From Schmidtea polychroa (Eukaryota): 64,000 nucleotides of DNA. Where the stretch lies: assembly GCA_044892525.1 (NCBI GenBank), contig CM097885.1, forward strand, positions 22,136,001 to 22,200,000, written 5' to 3'. Below, piece after piece: positions 55 through 58,616 of the stretch. Below the pieces are notes generated by a model that was not told where the DNA came from, ran no database searches, and saw only the letters and a program-made list of their open reading frames with translations. Numbering within the stretch: position 1 is the stretch's first letter; every line of letters starts with the position of its first letter. Both the position numbers and the translations under genes were made by a program.

Positions 55-207
55 AGTTAGATATATTGTTGTTTTAATAATTAGGAATTTGCGGTTTTTG
101 TGAATTTATTAAAACTTGTTATTTATAAATTCTTTGATTAAATATATATTGTTAGTTTCAAGATTTTTGCTGCAAATTTAAAGATGGATCTAAAAATGGA
201 TTTAACT
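55..207 (+). repeat. 5' LTR of element A (AGTTA...TAACT)
   Basis: Direct repeat of 4595-4747; 5-bp terminal inverted repeat AGTTA/TAACT. Confidence 0.93.
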
Positions 208-1476
208 GGCGACCACGCCGAAAATCAAAATATCAACGCCATTTCGAAATCGACAAAATCGCTAATGGAATGCCTACCGAAATCATGCCAAGACATGCTC
301 ACACTGAACATCAGACGATATGATGGACGAGGTTTAAAAGAAGCCGAAGAATGGATCAGAGATATAGAAGAATGGTTGCTGAGAAATGGACAGCGATTGA
401 CAAGCACTTTCGATGTGTTATTAGTGGCAAAAGCAAAGACATTGTGGGAAAACGTCAGAGAAACAGAAACAACAGATGTAAAAGCCAAAGCGTGGTTCTT
501 AAATACGTTCACAATTACAAAATCTATAACTGACAAAATCAGAGAATTGGCAGCTATGGAACAGGAAAATGATGAAAGGTTTGCAGCTTTTGAGATACGG
601 CTAAGAAAAGCTTTAGCTGAAGCTGTAAATTCAGGACGATCAGAAGAAGATATTGTTCAAGACCTCATCGCAAATAAAGCACGCGATGCGAGACTGAGGG
701 AGATACTATTGACAAAACCAGAAACAAAAATTGAAGAAACGAGATCATTGGCGAAAATTTTTGAAAGTAACAAAATTGGAAACCATAAAACAGAATTTGT
801 TAAAGCAATCGGTCAAAGAACATACGCTAGCGTGACTGAGGGAGTGCAGATGAGAATTCGACAGAATACCCAAAATCCCATGCCTACATCACCACAAAGA
901 AGGCAATCAGAAGATCGATTTAGTCACCACAGATCAAGAAGAGACGAATATCCTATACGCGGACCAATACAATATGAAGGAAATAACCATGGTCGTCGAG
1001 AACAATCTCCAAGAGAACAATTCTTGAGAAATGCGAGAATCCCGAATAGCTCAGAAAGGAAGCTGCCGACAATATCCATGAAGAATATAGCAAGGAGGCT
1101 GTACAACGAAAGTATAGTAGTACCACAAGCATCGGTAGGTGATTGTTTTTGCTGTGGCAAAAGGGGAATTAGAAGGTATGAGTGTCCACTGGGAAATAAA
1201 TGCCTGATATGTGGCAAGGAAGGTCACGGTTTCCGAGATTGTTTTTCGTTACGGAAAGAGGTTCCACACCGATATCAAAGGATAGCGTGCATAGAAGAAG
1301 AAGATTCAAAATCTGAAAGAAGAGATTACACCGAGAACAGCCAGGATTTCAGAACTGCTCACAGCGACATGGAAGATAGATACAATGTCCCTGAAAAATA
1401 TACTATATTGAGAGAAGACCAAAAAAACAACAGCGACTCCATGGGTTTCATTTCGTCGGTGGAGTCAAGACAATAA
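184..1476 (+). CDS. gag: Gag of element A (430 aa)
   Basis: Capsid-like N-half; two knuckles CFCCGKRGIRRYEC (His lost) and CLICGKEGHGFRDC; candidate -1 slippery site A_AAA_AAC at 1422-1428 with the pol frame open from there. Confidence 0.9.
   Translation: MDLKMDLTGDHAENQNINAISKSTKSLMECLPKSCQDMLTLNIRRYDGRGLKEAEEWIRDIEEWLLRNGQRLTSTFDVLLVAKAKTLWENVRETETTDVKAKAWFLNTFTITKSITDKIRELAAMEQENDERFAAFEIRLRKALAEAVNSGRSEEDIVQDLIANKARDARLREILLTKPETKIEETRSLAKIFESNKIGNHKTEFVKAIGQRTYASVTEGVQMRIRQNTQNPMPTSPQRRQSEDRFSHHRSRRDEYPIRGPIQYEGNNHGRREQSPREQFLRNARIPNSSERKLPTISMKNIARRLYNESIVVPQASVGDCFCCGKRGIRRYECPLGNKCLICGKEGHGFRDCFSLRKEVPHRYQRIACIEEEDSKSERRDYTENSQDFRTAHSDMEDRYNVPEKYTILREDQKNNSDSMGFISSVESRQ
207..217 (+). 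promoter_or_regulatory. Primer binding site, probably tRNA-Arg; overlaps the last LTR base
   Basis: TGGCGACCACG is complementary to the 3' end (...CGUGGUCGCCA) of metazoan tRNA-Arg(UCG) as recalled. Confidence 0.75.
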
Positions 1477-4400
1477 ATTGTGAAATAAGAAATGAACGAC
1501 GAAGAGGCGAGGCAGAAGAAGAGATGTACCAGACGAAAGATGGAAGAAATTGGAGTAAAATAATGTTGAATAATGCCGAAACAGAGATGTTATGGGATTC
1601 TGGAGCATCAGTAACAGTCATGAGCAAGAGTTTGTGGGAGAAAATCGGCAAACCAGAACTTAAACGTAGTATGATATTATTGTGCGGAGTTTTTTCAACT
1701 GGAGGTGAAGAAGCAATGGGATACATGACTATACCGGCCACATGGAATCAGAAGACCAAAATAATCACAGTAGTAGTGGTAAAAGAGATCAAACCAGAAT
1801 TCATAGGGGGCATTGATACAATGAAAGAGTTTGGAGTAAAGTTAGTGAAAATCAGTAATATAGAAACGTCATTGATAAACAAAATTTACACTGATGAAGA
1901 AAGAATAAATAAAGCACTAGTGGCGATGGCAGGTGACAATAATAAAGATATTGAAGGAATGATCAGGGAATACGGCGGAATTTTTATGGCATCGAAATTC
2001 GATCTGGGATTTACAAACTTAGTTCGACATGAGATGCGGATAACAGGAGGCCCAATAATGCAACATCCTCGACGTCAACCAATGCACATGGAGAAAAGGA
2101 TTGAAGAACTGATAAAAGAGTTAATGAAAGCAAATGTTATTCGGTGTTGCAAGAGTCCTTGGAATGCCCCGTTAGTGATAGTAGGGAAGAAAGATGGATC
2201 TATCAGGATGTGTGTAGATTATCGTGGATTAAATTCCATAACAGAAAAAGAGTCATTTCCTATGCCTAACACCAAATTCTTACTAGACTGTCTCGCGAAT
2301 GCAAAAGTATTTTCGTCAATCGATTTAGGTCAGGCGTATTATCAAGTGGAGTTGGCTCCAGAAATTCAAGAAATGACTGCATTCAGTACAAGAGAAGGAC
2401 AATTTTGCTTCAATAGACTACCGTTTGGCTTAGCAACAGCTCCTGCGACATTCCAGAGACTGATGCACACAATGCTAGAAGGAATGCTATTCAAAGGAGT
2501 AGTAGTTTATCTAGATGATATCTTGGTATATGGTAAAAGTCAAAAAGACCACGATGAGCTATTAAGGGAAATATTCAGAAGAATTCAAATGGCAAGACTG
2601 AAGATAAATCCAGAAAAATGCAAATTCAATAAAACATAATTGTGTTTCCTTGGTCACACAATTAACGAGAAGGGTATCCAAACAAACAGGAAGAAAGTGG
2701 AAGAGATCGAGAAAGCAGAAGTACCAAAATGTTCAAAACAATTGAGATCGTTTCTCGGATTAACGAACTACTATAGAAGATTCATCGAAGACTATGCCAA
2801 AATCGCCGAACCATTATACGCTGCAACATCTGGATGCGATAAAGATATAAATTGGACTAAAGAATGCAATAAGAGCTTCCAAACTCTGAAGAGACGGTTG
2901 TGCAAAGCACCTATCCTTGATTTTCCAAGAGAAGATAGGACTTTTATCTTAGACACAGACGCTAGTTTCGGAGCCATTGGTGCAGTTTTGAGTCAAATTA
3001 CAGAAGATGGAGAAGAATCTGTCAAAGCTTATGGCTCGAGACATATGTCATCACATGAAAAAGGATACTGTGTAACCAGGAAAGAACTGCTCGCCGTACA
3101 CGAATATGTCATGCATTTTAGAGAATATCTGTACGGAAAAAAATTCATAATTCGCACCGACCACAAGGCATTGGTTTTCATGAACACTACAAAAACGCCA
3201 ATCAGTCCGCAATTCCAAACATGATTAGCTAACCTGTCGGAATATGATTTTGAACTAAAATATCGGAAAGGCGAAGAACACTCAAATGCAGATGGACTAT
3301 CAAGATTAAAAAGTATGGTTTGCACCCAGTGTCAAACAAGACATGAAGAAGCTAAGGAAGGAAAATCAAAGATTAGATATATATATATACTATCCAAAGA
3401 ACAGAAGCTATGGAAAAAGTATGGGAACAACAACAAAAGGACATTCGGTTTTGAGAGCTGCGAGAGATATTGGAAAATGGATGTACACGGGAGAAAAAAA
3501 ATTGTTTTCCTTTTAACGAAAAAAACATACAAATTGATGGAGGATTAATAACAGTAGAAAAGAACAAAAATATCTTAATGTTAGTCCCAGAAACATTTGC
3601 AGGCCGGTTAACAACAACGCTACATGAAGAACTATGTCACATTGGAGATAAGAAATTATTTCATTATATGGAAAAGATATTTTATTGGCCGAAAATGCAA
3701 GAAACAATCCAACTCTGTTTACAATGTTGCGAGATCTGCGCTAAGAGAAAGATCGATCAGACAAGAACCAAGGAAACATTTATTCCTAGATATAGCTCTG
3801 AATTCCTAGAACAGATTGTTATAGATGTGGCTTACATGGAAATAAACGCCAAAAAAAAATATATGGTAGTAATGGTGGACCGTTTTAGCAAACTGATTTC
3901 TTTAACTGCAATCACAAAGCAAGACGAAGGGACCATTTTCAAAACAATACTTAATAGTTGGATCTATCGATTTGGAAAACCGAAGAGTATTTTAACAGAT
4001 AGAGAGCGAAATTTCGAAGGGAATTTCCTAAGACAGAAGCTACAGAAACTTGGAATCAAACAGGAATTCAGCTCACCTTACCTGCACCAATCAAATGGTT
4101 TAGCCGAAAGAGCCATATGAACAATAAGAGATCTTATTACAGCAACATTGGCAGGCGGATGTGAAGACAGAAACTGGCACGAACTTCTACCCAAAATAGA
4201 GTTCACTATAAATAGCAGTCGACAAAGTACTACAGGCTTATCACCATTTGAGATAATTTATGGACGGAGTGTTAACCTACACTCTAACCTGAAACAAGCC
4301 GAGATATCAAGAAGCGAAAGAATCGAAGACGCGAGATTTAACTCGAGTAAAGCCGCAGACACTATGAGAGCTATGGATAAGACAAAGAGGGGCACTCGTG

Positions 4401-4585
4401 TTTTTGAGGTGGGGGAGGAGGTACTCGTACGTAAAGAGCCGCAGAACAGGCACAAGGATGGTATGCAATACGATGGCCCATATAAAATCGCCAGATTTCT
4501 ATCACCTCATCGAGTCGAACTACATTCACAAGAAGGAACGAAAGAAAGAAGAATCGAGTGGCTGAAGAAGTGGAAAAAGTCTTAA
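1422..4585 (+). pseudogene. pol: Pol of element A (PR-RT-RNaseH-IN), disrupted
   Basis: PR LWDSGA; RT YLDD; RH LDTDAS...TDHKAL; IN HHCC, D..D..E and GPY; in-frame stops at 2637, 3222 and 4118 and frameshift(s) near 3375-3470. Confidence 0.93.
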
Positions 4586-4594
4586 GAAGGGGAG

Positions 4595-4747
4595 AGTTAG
4601 ATATCTTGTTGTTTTAATAATTAGGAATTTGCGGTTTTTGTGAATTAATTAAAACTTGTTATTTATAAATTCTTTGATTAAATATATATTATTAGTTTCA
4701 AGATTTTTGCTGCAAATTTAAAGATGGATCTAAAGATGGATTTAACT
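4595..4747 (+). repeat. 3' LTR of element A
   Basis: Follows the PPT directly; followed by TSD TTTAT. Confidence 0.93.
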
Positions 4748-5100
4748 TTTATATTTTTAAGTTTATAATTTATATTTTATGAAGTTAAATTTATAGTTTA
4801 TATTTCTAAAGCTAATATAATTTTATAATTTATACTTTTCAGTTTATAATTTACATTTTTATGAAGTTAAATTTATAGTTTATATTTCTAAAGCTAATAT
4901 AATTTTATAATTTATACTTTTAAGTTTACAATTTACATTTTTATGAAGTTAAATTTATAGTTTATATTTCTAAAGCTAATATAATTTTATAATTTATACT
5001 TTTAAGTATATAATTTATATTTTTAGGAAGTTAAGTTAAATTTATAGTTTATATTTCTAAAGCTAATATAATTTTATAATTTATACTTTTAGGATCAATT
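4748..5100. repeat. AT-rich tandem repeat, ~84-bp unit, decaying to ~5650; also at 1-54
   Basis: Repeated GAAGTTAAATTTATAGTTTATATTTCTAAAGCTAATATAATTTTATAATTTATAC; element A is inserted into this array. Confidence 0.85.
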
Positions 5101-5436
5101 ATAATTTATTTTTTTTATAGATAATCAAAGTTTCAAGTTTATGTCTTTTAGGAATAATATAAACTTATGATTTATGTTTTTATAGATAGTTCTAAGTTAT
5201 AATTTATAATTTAGGGGTGATATAAATTTCTAATTATATTTTATGAAATTAAATTTGTAATTTATTCTTTTACAACTAATCATGACTTATATTCTATGAA
5301 AGCAAACTCATACTTCGAAATTATAACGTATATTTTATAACTCATTTAGATTTGTAATTTATGCTTCAGTCAACATGAACCTATAATTTATATTTTAACT
5401 TTATAACCTATACTTTATAGTCAGTACGAGTTTATA

Positions 5437-12099: not shown

Positions 12100-12900
12100 T
12101 TTATAATGTTGTAACTACATAACTTTAGACTAAAATAACTTTGTAAAATTAACAACATATTTGTTTAAATAATTGAAACTAAGATAAATAATTAAAATGC
12201 AAATTAACGGTTTAATTCCAACACGATTTTTAGTAACAATTAGTCATCTTATAGCTGTTATATCAATTTTTCTTAAAAGAGTACGTTAGAATAAATTGGC
12301 TATGAGATGCTTATAAATATTCTAGGAAAGGTACACAACTATCGCGACAAGTGAAGATCAACAGTAAGTAAATATTTTACTCTTGTATTTCTCTTGATGT
12401 AAATTGATAAGGTTTATTGCCGGATTGTCATTTTCAATTTTTTTTCTTCTATTCGAATTGGGTAGTTTCATATGCGGTGTTACTATGTTTAAAAATACCT
12501 ATTCATTGTTCAGTAAATTTAAAATCGTTCATTAATTTAGTTATTGATTTATATTTTAGTGAGCATAATTCATGTTAGTGGAACGGTGTCATTGTGCTAC
12601 CTTATAACTAATAAATGGTCTGTATCGTATTTCTTTAACATATTTTATGGAACAATACTCGTACCAGTGACTTCAGAGATCATTTATATAATTTTCCGAT
12701 TGTGCATTCGACATAGTTTGTAGTGATATTTGAATAGATGAAATTTATTTTCTAATTTAATCGATTCTATATATTCATGTGGAAATTTTGGAAAGGATTT
12801 ATAAAAATTCAAATAATTCTAATAGAAATATAAATTAATAAAAAATTAATTTTGAATTTTAATTTAAAATTTAGTTTATTGAATTTTCTATGACAACAAT
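12100..12900 (-). mobile_element. Degenerate repeat, probable non-LTR retrotransposon ORF2 3' part (copy 1)
   Basis: Colinear similarity with 25740-26600 (e.g. AAATTAACGGTTTAATTCCA; ATGTTTAAAAATAC); the family assignment is weak. Confidence 0.4.
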
Positions 12901-13746: not shown

Positions 13747-14362
13747 ATATAGACAGCCACCTATGACACCAATTTTTAGAAACAAACATTCAAGTTTTTC
13801 AAAGCCATAAAATCATGATAATACAAAAATACTATGCTAATCTAAGTCAATTATTCCATGTTAATTCAAAATCTCTACAATAATTGCAAATTTTAAAACA
13901 CTTCAAACCATCTTGAAATCGCAATACACTTACATTCAAACAAATAATGTCATTTTTACTCTATATTAACTTCACGCACATTTTGTGAGGCCAAATTAAC
14001 TTGAGCTGAAATTTGGCAAGTAGATTTGTTATCGAGAACACTGCATGCTATCAACATTTCAGATCGATCTGATCACGGAAAGTTGGTTAATTTAAAAAAT
14101 ATTGATATGTAAAATCTAATATTATTTCCTTGTTTCAATATAAATTCTTAATTTTTCATTAGTGTTGGATTAAAGAGATAACGTAATTATATCTAAAATA
14201 TATTATATAAATTTGAACATTATGGCCATGTAGGTCTTAAGGTGTTAATTAGTGTTGGGACATTAATTAATTATTTTAAAACAAATTTAAAAAAGAACAA
14301 GTTAATTTGTTTAAATATTGTGTTTGTTAAATAAATAAATGTTTTGAATTTTTTTTGTAACT

Positions 14363-15271
14363 ATGAGTCTTACAAATGGTGTCAGAAACTCCGAAGTTGA
14401 CCATGTCTCGGTCAAAATTCCGGCCATTTTTCAAAATCAAAGTCTATGGTTCAAGCAAGTGGAGGCCAGCTTCAAGATATCCAGAATTACAGAAGAGACC
14501 ACAAAGTATTTTCATTTAATTTCAAATCTCCCAACAACGTTGCTAACAAAGTACGAACACTTACTGGACTCAGAAACCGAACTTCCATACACCACTCTGA
14601 AGGAAGCAATCTTAGCTGGTTTTGAACTATCAAGGACAATATCACTAACTGACCTGATGAGAGACGACTGCCTGGGAGATCGATCTCCATCAGAAGCGCT
14701 TCAACACATTACAGGACAAATACAAAGAATAGACACATCCATGGACCCATTCAACAGTCCTATATCTCGGGAATTATTCATGCGACTACTACCAAGATCT
14801 GTTCAAGACATCCTATTATCGATGCCATCGACGGACCTTCGGAAATTAGCGATCACAGCAGACAGAATAATGATATCAAAGCGTCAATCAGTGAAGGCAA
14901 TTGAACACGAAGATTGCAATAATCAAGAAGTAGGAGACAAGACGAGAACAATCATGGAACTGCAGGAAGAAATAAATGCAATACGACAACAATTGAACAA
15001 TAAAAACACCGGTAAGTTATGTTTTTATCATAGTAAATTTGGGCATAGGGCGATGAAATGTCAACCGCCATGTGAATGGAATGCAAATCAGAACGACAAC
15101 TATCAATCGAGGAAGTACAACAGAGAGAAATATCAAAATTTCGAACCGTCAAACATATCGTCAAGGAACAACAACAACAATTTCAACAAAAACAGCAACT
15201 TCAACAAAAACGGCAACTTCAACAGCAACAACCACAGAGAGAACCAGGGAAACGAGAGAAGGTTTCATTGA
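14363..15271 (+). CDS. gag: Gag of element B (302 aa)
   Basis: VKIP...LWFKQVEASF N-terminus and the CHCC motif CFYHSKFGHRAMKCQPPC typical of CsRn1-clade Gag. Confidence 0.9.
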   Translation: MSLTNGVRNSEVDHVSVKIPAIFQNQSLWFKQVEASFKISRITEETTKYFHLISNLPTTLLTKYEHLLDSETELPYTTLKEAILAGFELSRTISLTDLMRDDCLGDRSPSEALQHITGQIQRIDTSMDPFNSPISRELFMRLLPRSVQDILLSMPSTDLRKLAITADRIMISKRQSVKAIEHEDCNNQEVGDKTRTIMELQEEINAIRQQLNNKNTGKLCFYHSKFGHRAMKCQPPCEWNANQNDNYQSRKYNREKYQNFEPSNISSRNNNNNFNKNSNFNKNGNFNSNNHRENQGNERRFH

Positions 15272-18228
15272 ACCCGAACAGTGAAACCTACAAAATCATA
15301 TCTTCTTTCTCGGGACAAAACAACTCACAAATATTCGAAATACCAGCAATCATAAATGGAGAACAAATTGACTTTCTCATAGATACAGGCGCTGATCTCA
15401 GCATCCTTCCCGCAAACCGTTTCAAGCCTGATAGAAATGGAGAACATCGATCTTTAGTATCCGCCAACAATTCATCAATCACATACCACGGGCAGAAAAC
15501 GATTGAATTTACTATTGAAGGATTCAGAACTAAATTTATATGGTCTTTCGCTATAGCCGGCATATCTCGTCCAATTCTAGGTGCAGACTTCCTGGCCCAT
15601 CACAAAATCGATGTTAGTTGTCATTCCAGATCAATATGTTGCCCTAGCAGTAACGAAAGAACAGAAGCGCGGAGAAGCCAATGTGCCAAGATCTGTGCTA
15701 CAATCAACAAAGAAAACACATTAACCACGAAACTACAAATTATCACCAATGGTTCCCCTGTAGCTCAAAGACAAAGACCACTTTTTGGAGAAAAATTAGT
15801 TGCAACAAAGAAAGAGTTTGACAGACTCTTAAATGAAGGTGTGATTCGGCCAAGCAAGAGTGACTGGGCATCTCCATTAGTAGTGGTTAAGAAGCCGGAT
15901 GGATCATGGCGGCCTTGTGGAGACTACAGAATGTTAAATGAAATAACCCAGCCTGACAGATATCCACTTCCGAGAATTCAAGATTTACTGAACAAGATAA
16001 ACAACCCTCATGTATTCACTAAATTAGATTTGGAAAAGGCATATCATCAAATTCCGATTTGTGACGGAGACATTTCAAAGACAGCAGTCATAACACCTTT
16101 TGGATTGTTCGAATATACGAAGATGCCTTTTGGACTTCGAAACGCATCTCAAACGTTTCAGAGACACATGGACAACGTACTCCGAGAACACCAGGAGCAT
16201 TCCTTATCCTATATTGATGATGTTCTGATATTCTCCAAGACTGAAGCAGAGCATAAAGAACACGTGGCAAGGGTGATGGCCAGTCTTCAAGCCGCTGGTC
16301 TCACAATGAACCAGAGCAAATGCGAATTCCAAACCGAAAAGGTAAACTTTTTGGGTTTTGAATTAACAAAACAAGGAATAAAACCCTCTGAAGAACGCAC
16401 GTTGGCAATTAGCAATTTAAAGAAGCCAACTAACAGTCAAGATTTACGACGTTTTATTGGTGGCATCGGCTATTATCACTGGCTAATTCCTAGGCTGTCG
16501 GATACACTGAGTCCACTGCATGACTTGTTACAAGAGTCGGTCAATAAAAAGGAAGATCTCTTATGGCAAGACTGCCATACACACGCTTTCATGAGTGCCA
16601 AAAATTCGGTACGTGAAATCAGCAACGTTTCATATCCTAACCCGTCCAAGCCATTCCTACTATGCACTGACGCATCTTCTAAAGCAATTGGAGCAAGTCT
16701 AAGTCAAATCAACGAAGAAAATAAATCATTTCCAATCGCTTTCTTTTCGAGGAAATTAAATCTAACCGAACAGAAGTATTCCACCTTTGACAGGGAGTTA
16801 CTGGCAATATTCTTATCTATAAAACATTTTAAGCATTTTTTAGACGGTTCTCATTTCACAGTCATGACGGACCACAAACCTTTACTACGAGCTAGACATA
16901 TGAAAGATCCATCGCCAAGGCAATGGCGAATAATCGAATACCTTGATCAATTTGATTTTACCATCGAATTCATCAAAGGGGAAGATAATGTAGTCGCCGA
17001 TCTCTTGTCCAGACCATGCAGTAATCAAAACCTACAAGTATCAACGGTGGAAATTAATTTCGTCGAATTCACGAAAGAAAGGTTAAAAGAAGAACAAAGG
17101 AAAGATCAGACCTTATCTACACTGAAAAATGCAAGTCTCCAGTTATGTAGTACTACGGATGACATTCTCATTGACAATTCTACGGGGGAAACCAGAGTAG
17201 TACTGCCAAAAATATTCCGACATCAAGAATTTCTAAGAATTCATAACATATCGCATCCAGCATCCAAACCAACGATAGAACTGATCAAGGCGAGATATGT
17301 GTGGCCTCAGATGAAAAGCGAGATCAGAGAGTGGTGTAGACAATGTCAAAGATGTCAAAGTGCAAAAATAGCAAGACACACACATGCTCCTTTGGGCACT
17401 ATAGAAACCAAAGGAAGGTTCATTACAGTCCATCTAGATATAGTGGGTCCCCTTCCGAGCGTCGATAACAAGAGATACATCATGACAATGATAGACCGAG
17501 GAACGTCATGGGTTGAAGCAATTCCTATATATGATATCACAGCAGATATGATCATAAGAACATTTGAAAGAGAGTGGATCAGTCGCTTTGGTGTTCCAGA
17601 AATTGTCATAACAGATCAAGGAACACAATTTGAATCAGAAAAATTCTCCAATTTCTGCAAGGTAATGGGAATCGAAAGGAGGCGAACAACAGCCTATCAC
17701 CCTCAATCCAATGGGAAGATAGAAAGATGGCACAGAGCCCTGAAAAACTCAATAAGAGCCGCATCAGAAGACTCCTCCAAGATGTGGGCTCATGATCTCC
17801 CCAAAATTCTACTCAGTCTAAGAAACTGCACGAAGTCCAATGGGTCTCCATCAGCAGCGCAACTCACATTCGGTTGTCGAGCTAGATTACCAGGAGATTT
17901 TGTCATTAGTGAACCAACATTAACCGATATCGAAGAGAAGTTGACATCGATTCAAGAGGAAATCGACTCACAACTAAATAACAAACAAACAAGCCAACCA
18001 AAAGAACATAGTTTTGTAAGCAAACTATTAGTTCACTGCCAAAGAGTGTGGCTTCGATCTGAATTTAGGAAATCGTTAGAAGATCCGTACACGGGACCAT
18101 ACGACGTCATAGAAAGATCCGATGACAGTAAAACGGTAAAAATCAAAATCGGAGACCAAGTAAAAAATGTTAGCATCGACCGTCTCAAGCCATGGATTGG
18201 AACGGACGAATTTGCTCCGCAATCTTAA
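15247..18228 (+). CDS. pol: Pol of element B, expressed via -1 frameshift at G_GGA_AAC (15247-15253)
   Basis: FLIDTGAD protease, YIDD RT, TDAS..TDHKPL RNase H, HHCC plus DDE integrase, GPY; pol is in the -1 frame relative to gag. Confidence 0.93.
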   Translation, partial: GKREKVSLNPNSETYKIISSFSGQNNSQIFEIPAIINGEQIDFLIDTGADLSILPANRFKPDRNGEHRSLVSANNSSITYHGQKTIEFTIEGFRTKFIWSFAIAGISRPILGADFLAHHKIDVSCHSRSICCPSSNERTEARRSQCAKICATINKENTLTTKLQIITNGSPVAQRQRPLFGEKLVATKKEFDRLLNEGVIRPSKSDWASPLVVVKKPDGSWRPCGDYRMLNEITQPDRYPLPRIQDLLNKINNPHVFTKLDLEKAYHQIPICDGDISKTAVITPFGLFEYTKMPFGLRNASQTFQRHMDNVLREHQEHSLSYIDDVLIFSKTEAEHKEHVARVMASLQAAGLTMNQSKCEFQTEKVNFLGFELTKQGIKPSEERTLAISNLKKPTNSQDLRRFIGGIGYYHWLIPRLSDTLSPLHDLLQESVNKKEDLLWQDCHTHAFMSAKNSVREISNVSYPNPSKPFLLCTDASSKAIGASLSQINEENKSFPIAFFSRKLNLTEQKYSTFDRELLAIFLSIKHFKHFLDGSHFTVMTDHKPLLRARHMKDPSPRQWRIIEYLDQFDFTIEFIKGEDNVVADLLSRPCSNQNLQVSTVEINFVEFTKERLKEEQRKDQTLSTLKNASLQLCSTTDDILIDNSTGETRVVLPKIFRHQEFLRIHNISHPASKPTIELIKARYVWPQMKSEIREWCRQCQRCQSAKIARHTHAPLGTIETKGRFITVHLDIVGPLPSVDNKRYIMTMIDRGTSWVEAIPIYDITADMIIRTFEREWISRFGVPEIVITDQGTQFESEKFSNFCKVMGIERRRTTAYHPQSNGKIERWHRALKNSIRAASEDSSKMWAHDLPKILLSLRNCTKSNGSPSAAQLTFGCRARLPGDFVISEPTLTDIEEKLTSIQEEIDSQLNNKQTSQPKEHSFVSKLLVHCQRVWLRSEFRKSLEDPYTGPYDVIERSDDSKTVKIKIGDQVKNVSIDRLKPWIGTDEFAPQS

Positions 18229-18648
18229 GGGGGAGTTGTGTTGGGACATTAATTAATTATTTTAAAACAAATTTAAAAAAGAACAAGTTAATTTGTTTAA
18301 ATATTGTGTTTGTTAAATAAATAAATGTTTTGAATTTTTTTTGTAACTATGAGTCTTACAATTAGTATGAAAAGTTTTAGTTTTGAGTGAAATATAGAGT
18401 TTCATAGATCATGTTTTTATGGTTGATTTTTTGTTATAATTCAGACATTTTGTCGTATCTATCTTTCAGTGCCTGCTTTATCTGAAATGTGTTTTTGTAC
18501 TAATAAAACATTAACATAGTAATGAAAAATATTTAAAAATTAATCAATTATGCTAACTGTGAAATGGGGTACCGTTATTATTGGCTGCATAGGGCTTCAT
18601 ATTGCATGTGAAAGGCTCTGTACTTGGTACTTTTCAATTACCCACCTG

Positions 18649-19728: not shown

Positions 19729-22700
19729 TGTTGGCGTATGTGGGGAGAAAAGAAAACTTATCACCAGACCACACATCCCGTTCATTTGACTCAGATCCTT
19801 CCCCATCATACTCCAAGTGACCTTACAGATATTCCCTCATTTGAGCCCGTGGAGGTCTTACACGTTGGTGATGCTCACATGGGTTGGAGTTAGTTAACAG
19901 GTGAGCCCCTGCCTTAGGACTGCTATTAACCTCCTCACGGTTCGGGTTCCAAGGTGCCATAGAAGGTCTTACCCTTACACTTACGCACAACTCGGTTCGA
20001 CCCTGGTCCAAGGGGACGACCTTTATCCGATGACTTTCACTTCGATTCAGCAATCAAACCAAACTATGCACTCAACAATCTCGTAAATAACTCAATAAAT
20101 GTCAAGAAAAATTTTTTTTATTAATTCCGCTACGTACATTGAATACACCCAAAAAAAATGTATATACACCAGTGTCTTGTTAGATGATGAGGGTAAGCCC
20201 ATCACTACATTTACCCTAGACAAATACTACAGGACAGGGCCCAAAAAATATAGAGTAAATGTGTACGCCGAAGAGCGCAGATAGATAAATATTCCAACAA
20301 ACAACCCAATTTCAAGCAAATCAATTCAACCCAAAGACAACCCAGCAATCTGAAAACTGACTAAATCGTCGAGCAAACTATGCATATTCTATCTTATCAA
20401 CAATTGTGTAAATATAATTGACTATTCTATCTTATTAACAATTGTGACAATCCATGTATATTTTATCTTATTTATATGTATATTTTATCTTATTTTCCGT
20501 CTGAATATTTTTATCTTATTTTCCGTTTGAATATTTATGTAGAATGTTAATATTTTATCGGGTGTATGTATTTAATAGATTTTATTAGTTAACATCTTAA
20601 TTATATACAAGGGAAAAATATTTTAATAATTTTAATTTGATATTTCAAACTAATAACAATAAATTTCAAAATTCAATTTTTAATTGTAAACTTCAATTAA
20701 TTTTATATTTCAAACGAATTGTAAAGGAAGAATTTTTTAGAACAGCTGGTTTAGAACAGCTGAGAAATTTTGACAAAAAACAATAACACTTTAAATAAAA
20801 TAATTAATTTTAAAACTAGGAAATAATAATCAATTAAATTTTAAGTATGTAAATTAACAACAGCTGCCCGTAAAAATAGTATAAATAGCGACAAAAAATT
20901 AGTTTTAGTCGCCCAAAAAATAGCGCAAAGATTTTTTATTCGAAGGTAAATCCTGAGGATAATTCAATCATTTGAATCAGCACAAAACGATTCACAAATA
21001 GTAAAAGCTTACGAAGACACAACACGCATATACAACAAATAACAATAAACATACTTTCTTTTGCACGCATTTCAGTTGGAGAATTTAACAAACGAGTATC
21101 GATTTTTCAGAATTGTAATTGGATTATATTTGGTAAATTTTACTTTCAATAAACCTTTATATACGTCTTTATTTGTTTTGTTATATATATAAGAACCAGT
21201 AAGTTGAGTGTTCCCGATTAACGAGACCTCAACAGTCTAATGAACAACTAAAATGCACAAATGAATTGTTAGTAGGCAAGGATCGCAGTTAGGCCTGTCA
21301 GGACGAATTAAGCTGGTCACCGACGTTATGTCTGATCATTGAAAAATTTCCCCTTCCGCTAACATTTCGTCTATGTCTACGGGTAACCGGCGATCCGCAA
21401 GATACTGGATTCCATCAGCCGGAACCACTCTAAATATTTCTTGGTTTGGGATTGAATGGGACTCGGATATTTCCTTGATGGTGGATTGGGCCACCGATAA
21501 CGAGGCTTCTAGTGCTGCTATGGTGTTTCGGCGCTTTTTATTTTTCTCAGCGCGTGTCGGCCGCTTACGTTTTCGATTTGGCGCTGTAGTTTCAACAGTT
21601 GGCTGTATCCGAGGAGGCTGAAGAGTTGGAGCCAAGATGGGGTTCGATGGACCCGTTGTCGTGGGCCTAGGACTCGAGAGGACTGGAGCGAAGATGGGGG
21701 ACAATTGCGGGTTGTGTCCCTTGCAGCGGGTTGTTGATGGAACCTCGGAAACCTGATGATGAATCGGGAACACATTTGTCCCGTCTTGAATTGGGTATTC
21801 TCGAACCCTCTTCGAGATCTCGACGTCTGTGTAGATTTTATGCAGGGCCTCTGATTGGGCCTTTATCGTGAGCCTCTGGCACCTACTTTCCTCCAGGAGA
21901 CTGTCGCGACAGTGCTCCAATCTCGAGATTTTCTGACGCTCCTCCTTCATTTGTGGACGGGAGAACCACGTGCCCTCGTATAAGTCAATACGTTTCTTTA
22001 AGGCCCCGATATAGGCGTGGAGTTTATTAATGTCTTCATTTTTGTCCGAACAGGAGAAACATGGACGAAGATCTTTTCCAGATTTAATTGGTGCAGTCAT
22101 CTAAATTTAAAGAAGTTTTTCGATCATGGTTAAAGGCAATCATTGGTGTATCGTTTACAGAGATGTCAGGTGTTTGGTGCAGCATCCTCAGGCGTTTCCC
22201 TCGGTGATCCTCAGCGGATCTCTGGTCACTCGCAAACGTTCATACCCCTTCACTCTCAAGCATGCCCATTCAGTCACTCCAATTCATGCTAATTAAGATA
22301 AAACGGGGATTGTTAACGATGTATTCACTATATTCCCAACATACAGGGTATTTTAGTTTTACCAATTATTATTTAATCCACTCCTCACTTCGGTAAGCGT
22401 ATATTTTTACATTTACAAACTCCTTATTGTTGTAAACCATCAGCTGGGCTAAGGTCATTTGATATTATGACCGATTACGCGATTGTTCATGTTATACTAC
22501 GGGAAACGAATAAATTCCCCTTGATGTCCTCAACCTCGTGGTGCAGAGAAATAGATATATTTAGGAAAATTATAAGTCTTAATTAATTTTAGCAGACAAT
22601 TGTAGAATTTATTGACTTCGCGACGTAGATATTGTCATGGAAAATCTCACCGTTCTGTGCTGTCGTCACTCTATCCCCTGTCCTGTGCGTGCAAAATGGC

Positions 22701-25739: not shown

Positions 25740-26600
25740 GATAACTGATGATGTTAATCATTTGTTTAATTCGAATAAAGTAACATAATTGTTTGTTCAT
25801 TAAATTGTATCGAATTATAATATGAAAATTAACGGTTTAATTCCAGCAAGGTTTCTAGTTTTACTAAGCCATTTAATAATTATAATGTCTATTATTTTTC
25901 AAAGAGTAAGTATGTAATTTAATTTATAAAGATATTAAATTTAGGATAGGGTAAACATAACAAAATAGAATCTATTGAAGATAATCAGTGAGATATAATT
26001 GAAAGAGATTATAATTACAAAGCATTCCAATTAAGGTTTTCCATGGGATTATCTATATCAGTTGTGTTCATTCTATTTGAGCTGTGTAGTTTCGTAAGTG
26101 GCGTAACAATGTTTAAAAATACATATTCGTTATTTGGTAGAATTTATATTAATTATTAAACTTAAGCTAATCGTGATTAGTAAGCGTAGCTCATGTGGCA
26201 GGAACGAGTTGTTTAAGTTATTTCATAAATGAAAAGTGGTCAATTGAAAAGTTTTGGTATATATTTTATAGCACTGTTCTAGTTCCTGGAATTGCCGAAT
26301 TTGTTAACGTTATGACCAGGTTGTGTTTCCGTCAGAGTCTTTAATGTGTTTTAGTTTTAATGAATTTTTATTAAATGCAATATTGGTTTTATTTAAATTA
26401 ATGTTGGTTATTTACGTTTCAATGTTTTGTGAAATGATGAGTTTGGAAATATAAGTATTTAGGATAGATAAACAGAGCATTTTCGGGACTTATGATATTA
26501 TTTTTAGTTTTTTAGTAACGAATTTGAAGTTATACTGTTTAAAAAAACAGTTTGCTTTTAAAAGAACTTAAAAATCCAAAATGCTACCGTTGATAACAGA
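25740..26600 (-). mobile_element. Degenerate repeat, probable non-LTR retrotransposon relic (copy 2)
   Basis: Paralogous to 12100-12900; broken minus-strand frames (NEYVFLNIVTPLTKL...). Confidence 0.4.
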
Positions 26601-33441: not shown

Positions 33442-54707
<21,266 letters not shown>

Positions 54708-56889: not shown

Positions 56890-58616
56890 TAGGGCAACCC
56901 ATTGCAACTTTTTGCAACTTTTGCAACTTTTGACTTTTTTTGGAAAATTTTTGATTTAAAAATTATATATTCATATATAGATTTTTTGATTTAAAAATTA
57001 TGTATTCATATATAGATTTTTAATTTTTTTTACCATGAAAAATAATTCGAACATTAGAAAATACTGTGCATTATACAATAAGGAGTTTGTAATGGCCCCA
57101 AACGATCAGTTGTACTGCAATCTGTGTTCTAAAACAGTCGACCACAAAAGAAAATATACGATTGAAAAACACCGAAGAAGTCTTAAGCATTCCACCTTAT
57201 TATCCCAATTAAATAGCGAAGAACCCGCTAAACAAGACTTTATAAGCGTGAAGAAGAGGGAATTTCTTGAAATATTAACAACCGCGTTAATATCAATCGA
57301 CCTGCCGCTTCACAAACTACGAAATAATAGTCTCAAAAAGCTCTTTAATTTTATGACCTATCCACTTCCATCTGAATCGAGTATGCGAAGATACATTATT
57401 CAAAATACATACCCAGCAGTTTTGAATAAATTGAAAGATTATGTCAAAAACAAAGAAATATTTCTTGTTGTGGATGAAACTTCAATCAACTTAGAAAAAT
57501 ACGCCATGGTATTAATAGGAATAATCGAATCTCCTAAAGTTGTTTACGCGGCCAATTTAATACACCTGAAAGCTCCGATAACCCACCAAATTGTAGTCAA
57601 CATTATAAATGAAACATTTGATATTCTTGAAATTGAAAGTAAACAATTTTTGCTGTTGTTAAGCGACGATGCTAGCTACATGCGAAAAGCAGCCGATCAT
57701 TTAAAAATCGTGCATCCAAACCTTTTCTCAATTAAATGTATTGCGCACCTAATTCATAATTGTGCAATGCGGTTAAAAATTCACTACAAAGATGCTGATA
57801 ATATGATTTCTGCGATTAAGTCAATAACGGCAAAAAATAAAGAAAATAAAAGAATTCTTTCTAAGGCAGGCAATATTCCAGATGTTATTGTAACACGATG
57901 GTCAAGTTGGCTTGGCGCTGCATTAATTTATTCTAAAATACTGCCAGAAATAAAATTACATTTCAAGGAAATAACTCAAAAGGGAATATTGATCGAAAAT
58001 GCGAAAACGGCTATTTTTAAAGAAACGATAACAAAAGAGTTGGAAGAAATATTTAATTGTTACAGGGGGTTAGTTGTATTGGCTGATGAGCTTGAAGATT
58101 CAAAACATTCAATTGAAAGTGCATTTAAAAGAATAAATGAATTCGACTTCAAAGACGACCCTTGTAATTTGAAATCTTATATTCAGGAAAGAATGTTTAA
58201 AAACGACTTAAACAACATTTTGGAGTTGTCTAACGACAAAATTTCGCCAGCAACATATTCTCAGTTAAAAAATTGCCAGCCAACGTCAATTGACGTGGAA
58301 AGGAGCTTTTCAATGCTGAAAAGAATGTTAAGAGAGGACAGGAATTATAACGGAAATAATATTCCGTATTACTTTATCTGCTATTTCAATTCAGTTGATG
58401 AAAAAAACAATTTGATCCGAAACATTAGACCAAAGAATTATCAAGAATTTTTGCTTGTTTTCCCGTTTACAAAGGAATTCTACTTTAATGATTTTATATT
58501 TATATTTTGTAGTAAATAATAAAAAATTTAATATTATTTTATAGTCAGCTTTTATTGCAACTTTTGCAACTTTAAGTTTTTTTGCAATTCTTTTTTGCAA
58601 TTTTTGGGTTGCCCTA
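56890..58616 (+). mobile_element. Compact, potentially autonomous hAT (1727 bp)
   Basis: Perfect TIR TAGGGCAACCCA; perfect 8-bp TSD GTAATCAC; subterminal TTGCAAC repeats at both ends. Confidence 0.95.
57035..58519 (+). CDS. hAT-family transposase (CGGBP1/DUF659-like), 494 aa
   Basis: N-terminal CxxC..H..H zinc finger, VVDET, LSDDASYM, CIAH, TRW, DVERSFS. Confidence 0.9.
   Translation: MKNNSNIRKYCALYNKEFVMAPNDQLYCNLCSKTVDHKRKYTIEKHRRSLKHSTLLSQLNSEEPAKQDFISVKKREFLEILTTALISIDLPLHKLRNNSLKKLFNFMTYPLPSESSMRRYIIQNTYPAVLNKLKDYVKNKEIFLVVDETSINLEKYAMVLIGIIESPKVVYAANLIHLKAPITHQIVVNIINETFDILEIESKQFLLLLSDDASYMRKAADHLKIVHPNLFSIKCIAHLIHNCAMRLKIHYKDADNMISAIKSITAKNKENKRILSKAGNIPDVIVTRWSSWLGAALIYSKILPEIKLHFKEITQKGILIENAKTAIFKETITKELEEIFNCYRGLVVLADELEDSKHSIESAFKRINEFDFKDDPCNLKSYIQERMFKNDLNNILELSNDKISPATYSQLKNCQPTSIDVERSFSMLKRMLREDRNYNGNNIPYYFICYFNSVDEKNNLIRNIRPKNYQEFLLVFPFTKEFYFNDFIFIFCSK

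Follow-up and report, generated by a model that had tools for sequence, protein, structure and literature searches.

The window analysed here is a stretch of 64,000 nucleotides from Schmidtea polychroa (contig CM097885.1 of assembly GCA_044892525.1, positions 22,136,001 to 22,200,000), in which a Ty3/gypsy retrotransposon occupies positions 14253-18360. Its gag gene very probably begins inside the 5′ long terminal repeat (LTR) and is read through the primer-binding site (PBS). The features of the element are listed below with their strand; L001 is a relative known from DNA, and papers cited by PMC number are drawn on in excerpt throughout.

14248..14252, +, left target-site duplication (TSD), 5 bp, matches 18361-18365
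14253..14374, +, 5′ LTR, 122 bp, 17% GC, TGT...ACA, identical to the 3′ LTR
14330..14335, +, putative polyadenylation signal, a match to AATAAA at LTR position 78 (L001 counterpart at position 83)
14339..14347, +, two-codon upstream open reading frame (uORF) Met-Phe-stop in the LTR, absent in L001
14363..15271, +, gag, 302 aa, the LTR's final 12 nt supplying its first 4 codons; residues 27-98 match DUF7041
14377..14387, +, PBS, an 11-nt match to the tRNA-Leu(CAA) 3′ end, in-frame reading G-V-R
14397..14415, +, 6-bp hairpin within gag codons, the loop carrying an out-of-frame AUG, the first one beyond the PBS
15020..15073, +, Gag knuckle CX2HX9CX3C (CHCC), residues 220-237
15247..15289, +, candidate -1 frameshift signal: heptamer G GGA AAC (15247-15253), 6-nt spacer, 11-bp stem-loop (15260-15289)
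15247..18228, +, pol, -1 frame, stop TAA at 18226-18228
15382, 16210 and 16669, +, pol motifs: protease DTG, reverse transcriptase (RT) YIDD and RNase H DAS
17221 and 17437/17614/17722, +, integrase motifs HHCC and DDE, with a GPY tail
18227..18235, +, polypurine tract (PPT), shares bases with the pol stop codon, 3 nt ahead of the 3′ LTR
18239..18360, +, 3′ LTR, 122 bp
18361..18365, +, right TSD, 5 bp

The two LTRs (14253-14374 and 18239-18360) are alike at 122/122 bases, end in TGT...ACA and enclose, with the internal region, 4108 bp; the 5-bp TSD ATTAG stands on both flanks. Pol contains no internal stops, matches the Pfam domains for protease (PR), RT, RNase H (RH) and integrase (IN), and has intact catalytic motifs. 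Identical 122-bp LTRs, a length of 4108 bp and intact gag and pol had been read from the letters beforehand (hereafter the sequence-only reading), and the LTR comparison and the frames bear this out. The same is true of the pol stop, said to abut the PPT: the TAA overlaps the tract, 3 nt before the 3′ LTR. LTRs, TSD, PBS, PPT and the pol order PR-RT-RH-IN place the element in Ty3/gypsy (Metaviridae). Membership of Ty1/copia was considered and rejected, integrase being last in pol and not in the order PR-IN-RT-RH. By these features the element is an autonomous, env-less Ty3/gypsy retrotransposon, intact and young. Its Gag falls with DUF7041 clusters in a protein atlas search, and an Asn-rich insert of ~40 residues (15140-15240), just upstream of the frameshift site, is missing in all close homologs. 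The 11-nt identity of the PBS is drawn from a mouse tRNA-Leu(CAA) probe (PMC7997516) and from the Steamer PBS (PMC8905726), both of which open with the identical 11 nt, and not from the host's own tRNA; no tRNA genes were found within the 64-kb window.

The PBS lies in an untranslated leader in retroviruses and most gypsy elements. Here the ATG at 14363 stands 12 nt inside the LTR and opens a frame that gives MSLT from the LTR, then NGVRN over the 2-nt spacer and PBS. As the sequence-only reading had it, the next in-frame Met is codon 99, and the Pfam match to DUF7041 begins already at residue 27. The first AUG downstream of the PBS is out of frame. An upstream in-frame ATG before a stop is expected by chance in ~0.15 of LTRs.

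Conservation argues that this ATG is used. The relative L001, the one locus obtained from 374 candidate stretches, is a circular contig of 3861 bp whose Gag is 57% identical. Its LTR is also 122 bp and ends TGTTGGG...ACA as in the window element, yet it is unalignable to the window LTR by blastn, no meaningful alignment of the two existing, whilst the PPT, 2-nt spacer and PBS are alike. The L001 gag ATG, the sole ATG in that LTR, lies in frame 24 nt inside the LTR end. Over the first 14 codons past the LTR, codons for shared residues are identical in 13/13 cases, compared with 58/106 further on; those of this stretch that lie beyond the PBS are identical in 8/8 (p ~0.008). With two sequences only in the comparison, this hints that the 6-bp hairpin may be an RNA element lying across gag codons, in the manner of Ty1.

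A wider sample of 152 Gag homologs was inspected (4 from one search and 148 more from the top 150 of 4536 matches). In 17/152 a Met is followed by the motif GV[RS] inside the N-terminal 25 residues, against 10 of 1765 background windows of 25 residues; 11 of the best 14 matches have it. In a Gag tree of 149 rows, built after four over-long proteins had been dropped and the signature columns removed, all 18 signature Gags (the 17 and that of the window) sit in a single 28-row clade (Shimodaira-Hasegawa-like approximate likelihood-ratio test, SH-aLRT, 99). The signature requires 3 changes on this tree, compared with 17.2 in shuffles, and is absent from 135/152 homologs and from all 121 rows outside the clade.

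A closer inspection of the 18 signature Gags reveals the mark of the PBS itself. In 18/18 a codon beginning with A can specify the residue that follows GV[RS] (background 0.44), as an 11-nt PBS requires, and three of the 18 read GVRSG, which corresponds to a longer match to tRNA-Leu(CAA). Ahead of the motif stand 4-16 residues with little shared sequence, Met always coming first (18/18). No Met occurs from the motif up to the first conserved Trp in 16/18; the remaining two carry a Met inside the conserved motif. These comparisons indicate that the LTR-encoded residues ahead of the PBS turn over in length and sequence whilst staying in frame behind Met, that the peptide TNGVR merely follows from constraints on the nucleic acid, where LTR end and PBS are fixed, and that the layout is old within this lineage.

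Loci with this Gag type served as controls. Of six such loci the PBS was recognisable in three, where it is of the tRNA-Trp type, and not in two; in 3/3 of the Trp-PBS loci an ATG lies 14-52 nt past the PBS start.

Several points weigh against a conserved start in the LTR. In L087, one of the three controls, a further ATG stands in frame 17 nt ahead of the PBS; upstream in-frame ATGs occur outside the lineage too. The motif is lacking in 10/28 rows of the clade (one an N-truncated call), and thus the layout is not universal there. DNA was at hand for L001 only, the other 16 relatives being machine-called proteins whose starts favour the longest frame. Moreover, the uORF in the window LTR, 15 nt ahead of the gag ATG, could divert scanning, and tree supports are SH-aLRT values from short searches, without bootstraps. 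Finally, use of the start site here is inferred from sequence and conservation. With these points weighed, we hold it highly probable that gag is initiated in the LTR and translated through the PBS across the lineage, and with the same assurance that the LTR ATG is used, as the sequence-only reading supposed; conservation across a whole clade supports it.

Under LTR initiation, one genomic RNA would start inside the 122-bp AT-rich LTR. Replication requires the repeat (R) and unique 5′ (U5) segments on the RNA. An RNA start after 14363 would leave <12 nt for R and U5, so the leader would be at most 110 nt. The gag ATG may lie within R rather than U5, because that of L001 is only 10 nt past AATAAA. 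The window leader is predicted to be AU-rich and unstructured: LTR and PBS together fold no better than shuffles (z 0.09), in contrast to the L001 counterpart, which does fold better (z -3.8), and no conserved LTR structure is claimed. Ribosomes would initiate at the AUG contained in the LTR's final 12 nt, as its conservation suggests, and translation would cross the integrase attachment end (ACA, read as Thr), the spacer and the tRNA-Leu PBS before entering Gag proper. Gag-Pol most likely arises by a -1 slip at G GGA AAC ahead of the 11-bp hairpin, the stem-loop folding with z -3.1 in the window and -3.9 in L001 and the heptamer-encoded peptide QGN/PGN being kept in close homologs. As in Ty1, the same nucleotides would be codons when the RNA is translated and the site of priming when it is packaged, so that these two roles would have to take turns.

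The window contains a second gypsy element with a similar arrangement:

55..4747, +, second gypsy element, 153-bp LTRs with 4 mismatches, AGT...ACT ends, 5-bp TSD

Its gag (184-1476) begins in the LTR, with in-frame ATGs at 184 and 196, and its PBS is read as TGDH; its pol has in-frame stops. This PBS, which we take to be of the tRNA-Arg type, overlaps the last LTR base and differs from that of the 14253-18360 element. Among 15 Gag homologs (28-61% identity) the N-terminus Met...T[GV][DN][HLR] was found in 13, the other two being truncated calls. A Met lies between motif and conserved core in 8/13 and none in 5/13, and the case for an LTR start is weaker than for the 14253-18360 element. The RTs of the two elements are far apart on the RT tree and form no group. 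Because of this distance, and because Gags, PBSs and LTR ends differ, the layout would have been acquired separately; on this comparison both elements stand for whole lineages with the layout, gained independently. That two dissimilar gypsy lineages share it had been proposed from the letters and is upheld, the layout being conserved among the homologs of each. The accompanying suggestion of convergence or a shared origin survives in its first half, as separate gains, but not in its second, as the two RTs do not group. The second element is inserted in an 82-bp tandem repeat (4770-5124) that continues at the window start, and a third, decayed gypsy pol remnant (49303-50553, -) resembles it.

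The arrangement has a precedent in Ty1 of Saccharomyces cerevisiae. Ty1 uses a +1 frameshift, and unlike the element it belongs to another superfamily with another domain order, is primed by initiator-Met tRNA and measures 5.9 kb. Its PBS lies within the GAG open reading frame, at RNA nt 94-104 after a 53-nt 5′ untranslated region (UTR), and, as in the element, cis-elements overlap codons (PMC4974528, PMC3592414). The sequence and conservation of the element fit the same plan of a PBS inside the gag frame behind a short 5′ UTR. By this analogy the element would work like Ty1 in having its PBS within gag and in that respect only; it is not a member.

A PBS inside GAG is thus already known, whilst a gypsy case with gag begun in the LTR may be new. 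No gypsy element with gag starting in the LTR was found in the literature searched, to which Repbase reports, most subscription papers and the founding papers on CsRn1 and the Anopheles elements do not belong; excerpts of further papers are silent on LTR-initiated gag (PMC12471100, PMC3601003, PMC12801592, PMC6238403, PMC3587641, PMC8556966, PMC6431247). An alternative with a considerable chance, somewhat short of even, is that the layout is real but long-standing, widespread among small gypsy elements, rarely remarked and independent of the host. This alternative concerns novelty and is compatible with our explanation. The Ty1 precedent (PMC4974528) and the bounds of the literature search speak for it, as do the upstream in-frame ATG of L087 (locus L087:3622) and two Gags outside the clade, P0223 and P0225, known from proteins alone, which begin M...SGDP and could represent read-through of a Trp PBS in canonical CsRn1-type elements. 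Set against it are the 135 of 152 homologs without the signature, none of the 121 rows outside the clade carrying it, and a phrase search of the literature that returned no gypsy case.

As to why an LTR start should arise twice, tRNA-fragment silencing acts on PBSs in the 5′ UTRs of mouse endogenous retroviruses (PMC7472051). We regard as speculative, and rather unlikely, the idea that at least two unrelated gypsy lineages in one host group came to this layout by convergence, the advantage being that elongating ribosomes shield the PBS from tRNA 3′ fragments, or similar small RNAs, which repress through a PBS in the 5′ UTR. On this idea an LTR-encoded N-terminus, once present, would be free to grow.

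It is improbable that the shared layout reflects compaction of the host genome or a common origin of the two elements, although introns of ~45 nt in a TMEM107 gene and the small size of both elements would suit this account. The RTs are far apart, and the Gags, PBSs and LTR ends are unlike; genes are few and transposons many in the window; and canonical relatives are equally small without an LTR start. Moreover, the contigs of the runs that best contain the element total 215-420 million letters (not a genome size). The sequence-only reading had invoked a compact-genome host, which finds no support in a 64-kb window holding few genes among hAT, DDE and gypsy remnants. It had also treated the minimal architecture as special. 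However, circles of 3818 and 3997 bp represent canonical relatives with a Trp PBS, the pol of one running through the PPT into the LTR, and AgCR3 of Anopheles, with identical 146-bp LTRs, measures 4177 bp (PMC2582038, Table 1). Because these share them, short LTRs, small size and the lack of a 3′ UTR are not distinctive. Pol seems to read through the PPT into the 3′ LTR in several relatives, P0020, P0021, P0024 and L084 (3711-3732; DNA for L084 only), and hence the coding region can share bases with an LTR at either end.

A marginally poorer prospect still is that Gag starts past the PBS at a non-AUG codon, the LTR ATG being an accident taken up by programs that call open reading frames. Near-cognate ATT codons exist at 14417 and 14426, a chance upstream ATG is expected in ~0.15 of elements, L087 has such an ATG beside a normal downstream one, and the start site here is inferred from sequence. 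However, both ATT codons lie within the conserved VKIP motif and so would start too late to keep it whole. A Met at 4-16 residues before the motif in 18/18, at varying distances, is not expected by chance either, with the caveat that Met-less proteins may be called from other starts, hiding the motif. Hardly credible is a separate Gag mRNA that gains its AUG by splicing, for instance from a flatworm spliced leader ending in AUG: an in-frame join needs AG at a codon end, the first of which in the window and L001 is a Lys two residues past the conserved Trp, where the conserved motif has already begun, and splicing leaves the conserved LTR Met unexplained.

Turning to classification, the element had been called CsRn1-like, which holds for its proteins, whereas membership of CsRn1 proper is not supported. 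The CsRn1 clade is described by a CHCC Gag, a tRNA-Trp PBS, a 4-bp TSD and modified LTR ends (PMC2582038). Like its members (CsRn1, PwRn1, AgCR1-14), the element has the CHCC knuckle (residues 220-237), a DUF7041-type Gag, the order PR-RT-RH-IN with a GPY/F integrase tail, neither chromodomain nor env, and gag/pol overlap in the -1 frame; AgCR3 is equally small (PMC2582038). In contrast, its PBS matches tRNA-Leu(CAA) over 11 nt instead of tRNA-Trp, its TSD is the 5-bp ATTAG, for which no 4-bp reading fits (one insertion only), and the LTRs of the window element and L001 run TGTTGGG...ACA where the clade has TGT...AAA/ATA ends and the 5′ motif TGTGGYG. Its gag starts inside the LTR; the AgCR gag start is not stated in the excerpted text of PMC2582038.

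An RT tree with 130 rows (the query, 89 locus segments and 40 pol matches out of 120 listed) places the element and its 14 nearest relatives inside a 49-row clade (SH-aLRT 99) and outside a 32-row clade (SH-aLRT 97) that holds three Trp-PBS loci and six DUF7041-linked pols. The CsRn1 clade was located by these proxies, CsRn1, Kabuki and Boudicca not being among the rows. Because of the tRNA-Leu PBS, the 5-bp TSD and an RT outside the Trp-PBS clade, the element is best called, on present sequence comparisons, a lineage sister to the canonical CsRn1 clade (as set by proxy loci) that has CsRn1-type proteins and would work as elements of that type do. This sister branch is apparently undescribed so far. 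Steamer-like elements of bivalves belong to the Mag lineage. They too have short LTRs (177-187 bp) followed directly by the same tRNA-Leu PBS, and no LTR-initiated frame is mentioned in the excerpts of PMC8905726; unlike them, the element has a Gag of the CHCC/DUF7041 type and an RT that groups with CsRn1-type elements. No close pol relatives were found in viral contigs (80 of 99 loci kept) or prokaryotic-genome contigs (78 loci), the best segments being at most 44% identical, and loci from these scans served as controls only. Many whole eukaryotic gypsy elements, some as circular contigs, occur in the prokaryotic genome bins (L082-L159), probably as contamination.

The insertion had been judged very recent. 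Zero mismatches over 122 bases cap LTR divergence at about 2.4% (95% bound), and because LTR identity alone allows this much, the judgement leans also on the intact frames and on family contigs ~0.6% divergent. The latter came from comparing contigs of four sequencing runs with the window: the internal region is represented by long collapsed contigs ~0.6% from it (in X6, 23 differences in 3684 bases). Internal depth in run X5 is ~2100-2300, compared with 19-81 for the listed flank pieces, which fits a multi-copy family and gives no copy number. Among the pieces and rows listed from the four runs, none bridges LTR and gag and none shows a variant at 14363-14365. At the gag 5′ end (14410-14581) two contig variants, with 0 and 4-6 differences from the window, recur in three runs and suggest two subfamilies. 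The element is nested in another repeat of very high depth (14001-14201, 18385-18430), and contigs of other copies join both sides without it. A proposed check, insertion polymorphism, is not shown by these data, since the listed contig joints over the element skip 4181-4197 bases, where a clean empty site would skip 4113, and derive from other copies of the surrounding repeat.

If gag does start in the LTR, two gypsy clades with the PBS inside gag would be natural independent replicates of the Ty1 solution. They could serve to ask how a single RNA passes from translation to priming and back, and whether tRNA-fragment silencing is evaded by a PBS that is translated. The lineage would also define a branch sister to CsRn1 that has switched primer and differs in TSD length. 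The peptide tags GVR and TGDH could find such elements from protein data alone. In these families the Gag start will be missed by annotation in which the LTR is kept apart from the internal sequence.

Elsewhere in the window, two diverged TMEM107 copies (70-74% alike; introns ~45 nt) at 12197-12720 and about 25818-26159, 13.6 kb apart, flank the element. A fragment of an eIF3 subunit (eIF3j-type) lies at 38892-39116 (-) and exons of a gene with a PH_9 domain at 44116-47616 (-). Remnants of hAT and DDE_1 transposases and a 509-codon DUF659 open frame occupy 38530-41934, 53718-54077 and 56990-58516. Lastly, open frames of 254 codons (21336-22100, -) and 222 codons (33442-34110, -) have no Pfam match.

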